A stretch of 64,000 bases of DNA, taken from the NCBI GenBank assembly GCA_951406725.2, contig OX597816.1, positions 39,556,001 through 39,620,000 on the forward strand. Direction: 5' to 3'. This DNA comes from Octopus vulgaris. Lineage: Eukaryota. Under the pieces are notes generated by a model. That model did no database searches. It was not told where the DNA came from and saw nothing but the letters and a program-made list of their open reading frames with translations. This document shows, piece after piece, positions 17,446 to 57,533 of the stretch (position 1 is the first letter of the stretch; each line of letters begins with the position of its first letter). Position numbers and translations under genes: made by a program.

Positions 17446-17890
17446 AGGTGAGTTGGCAGAAACGTGAGCACGCCGGGCGAAATGCCTAGCGCTACGTTCT
17501 GAGTTTAAATTCCGCCGAGGTCGACTTTGCCTTTCATCCTTTCGGGGTCGATAAATTAAGTACCAGTTACGCTCTGGGGTCGATATAATCGACTTAATCC
17601 GTTTGTCTGTCCTTGTTTGTCCTCTCTGTGTTTAGCCCCTTGTGGGTAGTAAAGAATAGGTATTTCGTAGTTCAAATTCCACCGAGGTCGACTTTGCCTT
17701 CCATCCTTTCGGGGGTTGATAAATTAAGTACCAGTTGCGTACTGGGGTGGATCTAATCGACTGTCTCCCTCTCCAAAATTTCGGGCCTTGTTCCCTGACT
17801 AGAAAAGAATAATAATAATCCTTTTTACTATAGACACAAGGCTAGAAATTTGGGAAGGGGACAGTCGATTACATCGAGCCCCTCAGTACT
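17446..17890. mobile_element. SINE family B cluster (head plus two tandem bodies, then an inverted fragment)
   Basis: tRNA-like head, B-box GAGTT(C/T)AAATTCC, body repeated via the AAAGAATAGGTATTTCG junction. Confidence 0.85.
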
Positions 17891-18246: not shown

Positions 18247-18311
<65 letters not shown>

Positions 18312-18523
18312 CAATAATAATTCTCTAAATGAGATATAGACAGTGACTGCTCCATAATATAAGGGATATTAGCCAACTGAATATGGCTAGGGACAGGGCA
18401 GGGTGGTGGGGTGTCACTGTTGCATTTAGCCCCAGGCGAACATCAACGTCACCAGATAGGCCGACGCCATCACGGCGTCCTCTATCTTGCAAAGGGAGAT
18501 CATTCACCAAGAAGCGGATACAA

Positions 18524-18569
18524 CACACGGACCTAGGTTTCAAGGTGTATTGCCTATTATCAACGTGTG
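18524..18569 (-). ncRNA. Type I HHR, U3-A8 core variant (left arm)
   Basis: Reverse complement of the 18905-18950 motif. Confidence 0.75.
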
Positions 18570-18901
18570 GTAGGCATCGCTTCTCGACGAACGACCAACC
18601 GTGCAAGATATATATAAAGATTTTCAAGTAAATACATTTACTGATTTCGAAAATCTGTTCGACAGCAAATTTTAAATGAGATATAGACTGACGCTCCAAT
18701 TCTCTAAATGAGATATAGACAGTGACTGCTCCATAATATACAGTTGGCTAATATCCCTTATATTATGGAGCAGTCACTGTCTATATCTCATTTAGAGAAT
18801 TATTATTGCTGTCGAACAGATTTTCGAAATCAGTAAATGTATTTACTTGAAAATCTTTATATATATCTTGCACGGTTGGTCGTTCGTCGAGAAGCGATGC
18901 C

Positions 18902-18955
18902 TACCACACGTTGATAATAGGCAATACACCTTGAAACCTAGGTCCGTGTGTGGTA
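18902..18955 (+). ncRNA. Type I HHR, U3-A8 core variant (right arm)
   Basis: Stem I CACACG/CGTGTG. TTGATAA 18911-18917. Stem II AGG/CCT. GAAAC-CTAG-GTC 18933-18944. Outer helix AGAAGCG/CGCTTCT. Confidence 0.78.
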
Positions 18956-19586
18956 TCCGCTTCTTGGTGAATGATCTCCCTTTGCAAGATAGAGGACGCC
19001 GTGATGGCGTCGGCCTATCTGGTGACGTTGATGTTCGCCTGGGGCTAAATGCAACAGTGACACCCCCACCACCCTGCCCTGTCCCTAGCCATATTCAGTT
19101 GGCTAATATCCCTTATATTATATATATATATAAATTAAATTAGAGATAAAACCACTATTAGGCAAATCAAACAGTGAAAAACATAAACCAAAACATAAAA
19201 ATAAATTAATATAATATACAATTAATTAATATAATTAATATAATATACAAAATATATAAAATATAATATTTAAAATTTAAAAAATATAAAATCAAATTAT
19301 CTAAATTTAAAATTTTTGATTTATATTTATAAATTTTTATATTTTTTAATATTTTTAAAATTTAAAATTTATAAATTTTTAAACTTTATTTTTTTAATAT
19401 TTATATTTATTTATTTATTTTTTTAATATAACTATCAAAATGGTATTAAAAAGTTTAATATAATATAATAAGTAAAACCACTACGTACGTTTCATGGCCA
19501 TAACCCAATTTATATTTATACTGTGAAATTTGATTTAATCCTAAATCTAATTTTTTCCCTGTAAGTTTGGATTTACTTCCTAATAT

Positions 19587-19666
<80 letters not shown>

Positions 19667-19672
<6 letters not shown>

Positions 19673-19920
19673 GTTAAAGAGGACAACAAACGCTAAGGCA
19701 AGACAAACATCCCAAGTCATAAACGTTATTATTGTTGAGATGTTTATCTTGCCTGAGCGTTTGTTGTTCTCTTAAACAATTATATATCCGCTATATCGGA
19801 AATCTACACTGGTTCCATAACTCCCGTCTCGGCTATGAGCTTGGAGCCCCGGAACTCCGTTACAGCACTTACCCACCGTACCTAGTCGTTTAGATCACCT
19901 GTGAACTAAACTCCCATATT
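19667..19920. mobile_element. Imperfect fold-back (about 50-bp arms) plus unique tail between microsatellites
   Basis: Hairpin at 19667-19785 directly after (TA)n. Same layout as 6828-7139. Confidence 0.55.
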
Positions 19921-44465: not shown

Positions 44466-44619
44466 ATATACAGGCATACATACAGTAATCTCTTTTAGAG
44501 AGACTTAGTAATTTTAATATTTCTATTATTGAAAACAAGTGAATGTATTCCACCGAAACCAGGTAAATAGATTCTTCGAACAGGGACAGTCAGTAGAGAC
44601 ACCTGCTGGGTCTGACTAC

Positions 44620-44662
44620 GCTGCATTGATAAAGGGCAACTACTCTGAAACGCGTCTGCAGC
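44620..44662 (+). ncRNA. Type I HHR, U3-A8 core variant
   Basis: GCTGCA-TTGATAA-AGGG-CAACTA-CTCT-GAAAC-GC-GTC-TGCAGC. Outer helix CCTGCT/AGCAGG. The element runs to (TA)n at about 44832. Confidence 0.8.
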
Positions 44663-44875
44663 TGTCTGACTAGCAGGATGAAGCGGCTGACCTCCCCTGG
44701 TCGAAAGTCTATAATGGACGCAGATTGTGTGTCAAATAGCTAGCTTGAGACGGTGGCCTCTTGGAGCTAATCATCGACAACTTTAGTCTTATATCTATAA
44801 GATTGCCATATTAGTATGGCGATAACTATTAATATATATATATGTATATATGTATATATTATATTAAATTAGAGA

Positions 44876-45009: not shown

Positions 45010-45240
45010 GACGGCGAGCTGGCAGAAACGTTAGCGCGCCGGGCGAAATGCGTAGCCGTATTTCGTCTGCCGTTACGTTCTGAGTTCAAATTCTGCCGAG
45101 GTTGACTTTGCCTTTCATCCTTTCGGGGTCGATAAATTAAGTACCAGTTACGCACTGGGGTCGATATAATCGACTTAATCCGTTTGTCTGTCCTTGTTTG
45201 TCCCCTCTATGTTTAGCCCCTTGTGGGCAATAAAGAAATA
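45010..45240 (+). mobile_element. SINE family B, full length
   Basis: Head GGCGAGCTGGCAGAAACGTTAG, B-box GAGTTCAAATTC. Central GCCTTTCATCCTTTCGGGGTCGATAAA resembles the Meta/MESC-type SINE domain (from recall, unverified). Confidence 0.88.
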
Positions 45241-54579: not shown

Positions 54580-56163
54580 CTCTTCCTCCCCATGAAATTT
54601 CAGGCCTTGTGCCTATAGTAGAAAGTATCATTATCATCCAGGGCGGTGGATTGACAGAATAGTTAGATCATCGGGAAAACAAAAAAAAAAAAAAAAAACG
54701 CTTTGTGGTGTTTGCTCCGATTTTTTACGTTCTGACTTTGAATTTCGCTGTGATCAAGCATGCCTTTCATCTTTTCGGAGTCGATAAAATAGAGTACCTG
54801 TCAAGTGGTTGGGTCGAATGTATCGCCTAGCCTCTTGCCCTACGATCCCTGGTCTTGTACCAAAATTTGAAGCCAAAGGCGACAAACTAGCTGAGTCGTT
54901 AGCGCGCCATACAAAAGGCTTAGCCAGCAATTCTTCTCGTTCTTTACGTTCTGAGTTCAAATACCACCGAGGTCAACTTTGTCTTTCATCTTTTCGGGGT
55001 CGATAAAATAATTACCAGTTAAGCATCGAGATCAAAGTAATCGGTTGGATTCTTCCTCAAAAATTTCAGACCTTTGTCGATAGTAGAAAGGATTATTATT
55101 GTTATTATTAAGGCGGCGAGCTTGCAATATCCTTACTGCACTGGAGAAAGTGCTTAGCGGCATTTCTTCCGACTTTACGTTCTGCGTTCATATGCCGCCG
55201 GTGTCAACTTTACCTCTCATCCTTTCGGGGTCGATAAAATAAGTACCAGTTGAGCACTTGGGTCGATGTAATCAACTTGCTTCTTCCACTACAATTGCTG
55301 GCCTTGTGACAAAATTTGAAACCATCATCATTATTATTATCATCATCCAGTGCCGTAGATTAGCGGAATCTTTAGCGTGTCGAGTATTCAGACGAACGTA
55401 GCTCCCAATGACTGATACGTAAGCAAGGACGGAGCTTCGTCAAGTTCGGGACCCATCCAAAGTTGTGTATATATATAGTATACTTATATACACAATATAC
55501 ACATATTAGACATCCAATGGTGGATCTACTTTCATAATGTAACATTTCCTCGATCGAGATTCTGAGTACTATCTAAGTCATTGATTTCAAATTTTGGCAC
55601 AAGACCAGCAATTTCAGGGGAGGTAGCGAGTCGATTACATCGACCCCTGTGCTAAACTGGTATTTATTTCGTCGAGAACAAAAGGACGAAAGGTAAGTCA
55701 ACCTCGGCAGAATTTGAACTCAGAAAGTAATGACGGACGAAATACCTATTTCTTTACTACCCACAAGGGTCTAAACACAGAGAAGACAAACAAAGATAGA
55801 CAAACGGATTAAGTCGATTATATCGACCCCAGTGCGTAACTGGTACTTATTTAATCGACCCCGAAAGGATGAAAGGCAAAGTCGACCTCGGCGGAATTTG
55901 AATTCAGAACGTAGCCGCAGACGAAATACCTATTTCTTTACTACCCACAAGGGGTTAAACATAGAGGGGACAAACAAGGACAGACATTGGTATTAAGTCG
56001 ATTACATCGACCCCAGTGCGTAACTGGTACTTAATTTATCGACCCCGAAAGGATGAAAGGTAAAGTCGACCTCGGCGGAATTTGAACTCACAACGTAGCC
56101 GCAGACGAAATACCGCTAAGTAATTTGTCCAGAATGCTAACAATTCTGAAAGCTCGCTGCCTT
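54580..56163. mobile_element. Dense family B SINE cluster with a tandem array (55580-56163, minus)
   Basis: At least 7 B bodies. Period about 183 bp via the AAATACCTATTTCTTT junction. Confidence 0.85.
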
Positions 56164-57082: not shown

Positions 57083-57114
57083 TATATAATACATATATTT
57101 TGAGATATATGTTA

Positions 57115-57533
57115 CTTATTTCTTTATTGCCCACAAGGGGCTAAACATAGACGAGACAAACAAGGACAGACAAAGGGATGAAGTCGATTACAACAACCCC
57201 AGTGTGTAACTGGTACTTAATTTATCGACCCCGAAAGGATGAAAGGCAAAGTCGACCTCGGCGGAATTTGAACTCAGAACGTAACGGCAGACGAAATACC
57301 TATTTCTTTACTACCCACAAGGGGCTAAACACAGAGAGGACAAACAAGGACAGACAAAGAGATTAAGTTGATTACATCGACCCCAGTGTGTAACTGGTAC
57401 TTAATTTATCGACCCCGAAAGGATGAAAGGCAAAGTCGACCTCGGCGGAATTTGAACTCAGAACGTAACGGCTGACGAAATATCGCTAGGCATTTTGCCC
57501 GGCGTGCTAACGTTTCTGCCAGCTCGCCGCCTT
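57115..57533 (-). mobile_element. Family B SINE tandem dimer (one head, two bodies)
   Basis: Bodies about 183 bp apart. Head only at 57480-57533. Confidence 0.88.

Follow-up and report, generated by a model that had tools for sequence, protein, structure and literature searches.

At this locus, a 355-nt non-coding repeat lies head to head with a second copy of itself inside a TA microsatellite. The window, i.e. the whole stretch of Octopus vulgaris DNA analysed, is 64 kb long, and the insertion occupies less than 1 kb of it (Table 1). We took 18767-19121 (+) as the reference unit, with c1 = 18767, and assigned all pieces to it by an exact-match walk. Both RNA-sense 3′ ends point to the TA flanks. 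The left arm measures 359 nt (1.01 units, an excess over one unit of about 5 nt) and the right arm 381-386 nt (1.09 units, an excess of 26-31 nt), and the only differences between the arms are a substitution at 18522 and a single base in a run of G (18411/18412). An earlier note on this DNA had described two over-length arms, nearly identical as reverse complements, that open at different points of one 355-nt cycle, with one hammerhead per unit and (TA)n on both sides. Each of these points is borne out: the outer ends are c44 and c355, the hammerhead cores lie at 18911 (+) and 18563 (−), and TA runs adjoin both arms. The phrase "one 355-nt circle" holds in part, in that the repeat is circularly permuted; the circle itself is not something the sequence makes visible. 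The stutter reported at 18664-18740, with one sequence repeated twice, is there as well. Following 4 extra bases, a first re-copied piece (18673-18697, −) runs from c28 to c1 with two small gaps (exact-match fragment 18673-18688 = c13-28), and a second (18698-18740, −) runs from c35 to c348, so that TAAATGAGATATAGAC, found at 18326, recurs at 18673 and 18705. Both restart points fall within the tail. ATAT at 18736-18739 provides 4 nt of microhomology to the right arm. Extra junction pieces of this kind are seen in 6 of 38 family loci.

Table 1. Features of the head-to-head insertion and its flanks (window positions; c, position in the 355-nt unit).
Feature	Position	Strand	Remarks
(TA)30, left flank, target microsatellite	18250-18310	.	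TA adjoins 36/38 family loci on one or both sides
Left (tail) arm	18310-18668	−	c40 -> c355 -> c44; outer 3′ end c44; exact-match walk
44-nt tail, c1-c44, between two fixed family ends	18310-18353	−
Type I hammerhead motif, left arm	18524-18569	−	predicted cut 18530/18529; descriptor and degenerate pattern
Stuttered junction	18669-18740	−	4 extra bases, then two re-copied pieces
Right (short-end) arm	18736/18741-19121	+	c325/330 -> c355 -> c355; outer 3′ end c355
One complete 355-nt unit	18767-19121	+	45% GC
Type I hammerhead motif, right arm	18905-18950	+	predicted cut 18944/18945
Short (AT)n run, right flank	19122-19132	.

The hammerhead motif comprises a 6-bp stem I, the core UUGAUAA (U3-A8), a 3-bp stem II with a U.U at its base, GAAA, a palindromic stem III (ACCUAGGU) and, in the right arm, GUC at 18942-18944. 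Over the 64-kb window, a relaxed type I descriptor yields three motifs, those of the two arms (18911 + and 18563 −) plus one at 44626 + that is unrelated; 20 block shuffles yield none. A degenerate hammerhead pattern finds two, against none in 100 shuffles. Rfam gave no match to the motif at the gathering score, and at E<=10 it returned generic hairpins and no hammerhead family. The ribozyme call thus rests on our own descriptor and on covariation. The descriptor has 68 matches in the 38 loci sampled from the 355-nt family, of which 51 are identical to the motif of this locus. Across families, position 3-8 is U3-A8 here and C3-G8 in both a 360-nt sister form and a more distant relative, family B, which has the canonical CUGAUGA core. 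Stem I reads CACACG/CGUGUG or CAUACG/CGUAUG. Stem III remains a palindrome throughout, being ACCUAGGU here, ACCAUGGU in the sister, ACUCGAGU in family B and ACCGGU in a third variant, which also has a compensated stem I and G-C under stem II. As these pairs covary across families, we conclude that the structure is under selection. Self-cleavage at the locus motif is a prediction from sequence, and the fold of the monomer tempers it: the hammerhead (-4.7 kcal/mol) is much less stable than a computed alternative (-14.1 kcal/mol). Short palindromic stems III have been taken to imply cleavage as dimers (PMC4209133, PMC6765202). The U3-A8 core has been described as a variant in Penelope-like elements (PLEs), those of schistosomes among them (PMC4209133), and a U.U under stem II is present in the active axolotl retrozyme HHR_Amex2 (PMC7229834). 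The other motif in the window (44619-44665, +) also has the core UUGAUAA, with the palindrome ACGCGU and GUC. It belongs to an element at about 44490-44830 whose downstream portion is similar to family B (54 nt at 72%), and which is probably another retrozyme or PLE end.

The locus is a young insertion, and one of many. In the 2.8-Gb genome we found 111 matches at 92-100% identity (40 scored of 1,188 candidates), which supplies the other genomic copies that the reading of the earlier note required. The exact hammerhead 16-mer occurs 241 times (control 0) and that of the 360-nt sister 1,409 times (control 1). We considered whether the 360-nt form is an older subfamily and rejected this, since it is equally young. 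Family B (e.g. L168-L187, L158:2308-2868; L numbers denote loci) is a homologous retrozyme with a unit length of about 355 nt, 2,605 candidates and a related tail; identity over the unit is about 60%. The 355-nt unit lacks coding potential, its longest ATG frame in tandem form being 25 aa, and its RNA is strongly self-paired (z -5.96). It has no separate internal region and thus no apparent LTR/PBS/PPT layout. Target duplications are unreadable in TA tracts; at L025, a non-TA insertion, the duplication is 12 bp. The family statistics that follow come mainly from 38 loci, the best matches to the copy at 18310-19121, drawn from L001-L047 with seven duplicates and the complex locus L019/L029 omitted.

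By every sequence feature tested, the locus would be placed among the metazoan non-LTR retrozymes. These are described as non-coding tandem units of 150-450 bp, for example 350-390 in mussel and 330/350 in axolotl (PMC7229834; Li, Clavereau and Pollet 2026). The octopus unit shares the size, the lack of coding sequence, a GC content below 50%, a single type I hammerhead per unit, self-paired RNA, dispersal as monomers to multimers, the U.U under stem II and, where a target duplication is present, a length above 4 bp. It departs from metazoan retrozymes, as far as these sources describe them, in its head-to-head insertions, fixed ends, tails and U3-A8 core. Circles and cleavage have been demonstrated for the coral, mussel and axolotl retrozymes (PMC7229834; bioRxiv 10.64898/2026.07.22.740005), whereas the octopus family is known here from sequence alone. 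Li et al. define activity by at least two consecutive complete ribozymes (bioRxiv 10.64898/2026.07.22.740005). At least two same-sense ribozymes are present in 12 of the 38 sampled loci, and the locus itself has one per strand. Such a locus would probably release no monomer and is likely a dead-end daughter copy, so a 355-nt RNA would have to originate at other loci. In a computed fold, 92% of the read-through RNA of the locus is paired, and this RNA would form a long hairpin.

The two points at which the arms open are not arbitrary, since the outer ends are fixed across the whole family: a short end at c350-355 and a tail end at about c44, 44 nt apart. Genome-wide, the tail end followed by TATAT occurs 779 times (control 0) and the short end followed by ATATAT 865 times (control 9). 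Inverted insertions make up 29 of the 38 loci, all with their 3′ ends outward, and the remaining nine are single arms. All 29 inverted loci have one end of each kind. The same holds in an independent, pattern-based sample of 86 tail and 100 short ends from C1 and the first 65.8 Mb of C2 (86 of 100 listed tail sites, the range common to both lists): all 51 end pairs within 5 kb are outward-facing tail/short pairs, with no tail/tail and no short/short pair. Long arrays of the 360-nt sister with their ends read (two, plus L189) follow this one-of-each rule too. The inner 5′ junctions, by contrast with the outer ends, are scattered round the unit, and their joins overlap slightly or leave small gaps (-2 to +5 nt for the most part). 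Arm lengths correlate with opposite signs in two samples, significantly in neither.

These regularities bear on whether the structure could be an assembly artefact, or a palindrome or satellite made at the DNA level with no RNA step. The junction at this locus does rest on the assembly; contigs of four runs, inspected over 18620-18800, show neither cover nor a joint across 18669-18696, and a hole in contigs proves nothing. Recurrence of the fixed-end architecture at many loci, the 12-bp target duplication at L025 and the covariation of the ribozyme all speak against such an origin, to which we give next to no credence.

The head-to-head shape is in fact the standard footprint of PLEs, a point that the earlier note missed. 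PLE insertions are described as carrying an inverted 5′-truncated copy and a 30-40 bp tail at one end (PMC8557442, PMC3846280). When purified, the protein of an anole PLE nicks both strands of the target, extends them and begins at two internal sites of the RNA, which delimit the tail; in vitro, the start sites were alike on the two strands, a point against the reading given below (PMC11167929). Like PLEs, the octopus insertions have partial tandems, an inverted 5′-truncated copy, a tail on one arm, (TA)n targets, a hammerhead upstream of the start sites and the U3-A8 core of schistosome PLEs. Unlike PLEs, they have no ORF, the whole element is 355 nt, an arm can comprise many laps, and the tail is 44 nt rather than the quoted 30-40. 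In addition, these sources describe the PLE tail as an optional feature or one often found at one end; here, by contrast, every inverted case examined has one of each. By analogy with the anole protein (PMC11167929), we infer that the 44-nt tail sits between two reverse-transcription start sites. Given fixed ends, one per arm, together with the PLE footprint, the two opening points are most simply explained as two priming events, one on each DNA strand.

It has also been proposed that head-to-head PLE insertions arise by self-priming (PMC3846280). In that case, a cDNA or self-primed antisense RNA would snap back, and the second arm would be copied from the first. That the arms carry one haplotype is in keeping with this, as is the excess of 5′ ends in phase within 10 nt among the inverted loci of the pattern-based sample (6 of 27, with 1.6 expected). 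In the 355-nt family, only 1 of 29 loci has in-phase 5′ ends. Further, neither arm is contained in the other at this locus, nor at 13 of 29 and 13 of 27 inverted loci in the two samples, and fold-back leaves the one-of-each rule unexplained. We therefore consider fold-back refuted as a general mechanism, and highly improbable here; a minority of junctions may arise in this way.

What RNA served as template? Copies within a locus differ by 1.0% (1.08% in the same arm, 0.97% across arms), versus 2.6% between loci. Where a variant is common to several loci, it is carried by every copy of a locus in 102 cases and by only part of the copies in 27; 12 of the 27 partial variants are at CpG. Hence, each insertion appears to derive mostly from one monomer haplotype. 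Of 75 passes over the predicted cut site, 74 are free of indels, and the site shows no accumulation of 5′ ends (6 of 137, with 4.2 expected), which argues against jumping between linear monomers. Long arrays of the 360-nt sister extend the picture. L205:336-8663 is an 8.3-kb palindromic insertion with about 15 + 8 laps, in which 15 of 21 complete units are identical, and in L189 all five are. L203:391-6270, a 5.9-kb palindrome of 8+8 laps, has only 5 of 14 units identical. Three of its units carry one three-change variant (among them, in both arms, the seventh from the 3′ end), and a further variant is likewise present in three. A single circle accounts for L203 less well than a mixed or multimeric template, or subsequent gene conversion, would; gene conversion can also homogenise arrays. 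The three-change variant itself looks like a hairpin-templated switch. Taken together, these sequence patterns make a circular template RNA somewhat more probable than a linear one. RNA-seq junction reads at 18944/18945, which the earlier note had suggested, would not decide for a circle, because genomic copies are already continuous there.

The main competitor keeps the same PLE and the same priming on two strands, and has as template an uncleaved linear multimer from a long array, the ribozyme being a carried-along pLTR feature. RNA that has not been processed is the main substrate of anole PLE protein in vitro, and the ribozyme is not needed (PMC11167929). Similarly, 8 of 9 Xenopus retrozyme dimers are reported without cleavage (bioRxiv 10.64898/2026.07.22.740005). 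Arms of 8-15 units exist as possible sources, and the unit-specific variants common to both arms of L203 are what such a template would leave. Nevertheless, no pair among the 38 loci has two or more partial variants in common, and the predominance of variants fixed within insertions (102 vs 27) needs a monomer bottleneck. Without a circle, moreover, arrays would be expected to shorten with each generation, and covariation of the ribozyme pairs is at odds with a passive role. We regard a linear multimer as unlikely, and a circle as the better account.

Dependence of the retrozyme family on a PLE is well supported, and a PLE helper has been proposed for other metazoan retrozymes too (PMC7229834; Li et al. 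2026). The locus is not an autonomous PLE: the unit has no ORF, and tblastn found no RT or GIY-YIG match in the 64-kb window. Two Neptune-like families elsewhere in the genome are candidates for the helper. The first, so labelled from its CxxxxCxxC linker motif rather than from a tree, is a young 781-aa PLE (L098-L113, e.g. G000:C17:42762000-42768500), with a unit of about 4.85 kb encoding RT plus GIY-YIG and with 16 open frames that differ by 1.0% on average. TA is its target, and its two ends lie 38 nt apart, with 646 short and 191 tail ends abutting TA. All six of its outward-facing pairs are short/tail (p about 0.001), despite short ends being 100 of the 127 sites used (the tail sites being 27 of 100 listed, the range common to both lists). 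It carries a U3-A8 hammerhead motif whose stem II covaries. The second family (L116:1321-4483), 46% identical to the first in protein, has the same layout, with a perfect inverted pLTR of 766 nt and a tail on one of the arms, and its hammerhead motif reads CCGAAGA. Between them, the two families carry the rare core types of the retrozymes, UUGAUAA in one and CCGANGA with U.U in the other, and both have a palindromic stem III. Near-identical fragments of the second family adjoin retrozyme copies in L014, L119, L129 and L158, where TA tracts are shared.

The unit shows no significant similarity to either Neptune-like family. The likeness of its tail to that of the 781-aa PLE is at background (118, 54 and 140 of 955 windows score equally well) and was discarded as evidence. 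With no homology and a negative tail comparison, either family is a candidate helper at most. A homology search in 60 GIY-YIG loci (148 listed of 6,136 candidates) likewise returned no autonomous partner, and found only separate family-B insertions. This search covered GIY-YIG matches and top-scoring copies only, which leaves some room for the unit to be no more than the 3′ stump (pLTR) left by an autonomous PLE that escaped detection, immobile alone, particularly as PLE insertions are usually 5′-truncated and inverted (PMC8557442). Several observations make a stump very unlikely. Units follow one another head to tail without coding sequence, for up to 15 laps, and PLE protein matches are found in only 6 of 145 retrozyme loci (overlaps included). 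Three of these six (the others being L044, L047 and L168) were classed: L119 and L129, by their junctions, are separate insertions in a common TA tract, and L014 is likewise by its flank. A parallel is provided by the non-autonomous PLEs of Chlamydomonas (e.g. MRC1), which are non-coding, carry pLTRs and form multicopy head-to-tail insertions (PMC8557442). The octopus retrozymes resemble these as non-coding PLE dependants in head-to-tail multicopy arrays. They differ in that the Chlamydomonas elements, as described there, lack a canonical hammerhead and as a rule have 3′ sequence in common with an autonomous family; no such common sequence was found here.

As the earlier note had suggested, the evidence fits a young, retrozyme-like insertion for which a reverse transcriptase switched templates while copying a circular or multimeric RNA. 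We think it likely that the locus is a recent insertion of a 355-nt non-LTR retrozyme, copied in trans by a PLE (probably Neptune-type) RT-endonuclease, most likely from circular RNA. Such an insertion might proceed as follows. Loci with at least two same-sense ribozymes would be transcribed, cut as dimers via the palindromic stem III and ligated to 355-nt circles, a step that we judge rather more plausible than not. The PLE protein would then nick both strands of a (TA)n tract. One nicked strand would prime at c352-355, where the RNA, UUAUAUUAU, could pair with a TA primer, and the other would prime at c44. Each cDNA would circle the template for 0.2 to about 15 laps, and the growing ends would be joined with little or no microhomology, at this locus after two slips back into the tail. 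A more specific version, which we offer tentatively and hold to be somewhat less than probable, is rolling-circle reverse transcription of the retrozyme circle by a PLE dimer, whose two active sites would prime from the two nicked strands at two fixed starts of one RNA haplotype, one each, and roll for up to about 15 laps. If true, this would name the helper of the retrozymes, make the PLE tail a sign of obligatory asymmetry in the dimer, and offer an intact young enzyme with a 355-nt substrate for reconstitution.

For animal retrozymes, both the mobilising enzyme and the circle as template have been proposed but, in the sources cited here, not shown (PMC7229834; Li et al. 2026). A PLE-specific footprint on a retrozyme supports the mechanism in a way that co-occurrence and pLTR phylogeny do not. 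Neither the class of element nor the inverted shape with a tail is new; what is added here is the strict rule of one start per arm, together with multi-lap arrays of a single haplotype. The rule is a constraint that in-vitro PLE work left unresolved, and the short substrate and open Neptune-like ORFs make the question of helper and template testable. In our literature search, we found no paper on a cephalopod retrozyme or on a strict end-pairing rule; Repbase, Dfam or supplements may list the family.

Contigs of four presumed-RNA runs cover most of the unit and reveal no strand, ends or circle, which weighs neither for expression nor against it. A contig joint that leads back 355 nt in these runs reflects the tandem form only. 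At 19027-19104, contig depth in run X1 is far above that in the rest of the unit and comes from sister-form contigs, though contigs cannot show level.

Finally, several other repeats lie in the window. An AT-rich low-complexity stretch of mirror-like composition adjoins the insertion on its right (19200-19470). Directly after (TA)40, a MITE-like hairpin whose inverted arms are long spans about 115 nt at 19668-19781 (-59 kcal/mol). Copies of an abundant SINE-like repeat, a putative octopus SINE, are found at 17497-17762, 45080-45200, 55629-56114 and 57113-57482, partly in tandem with periods of 167-184.
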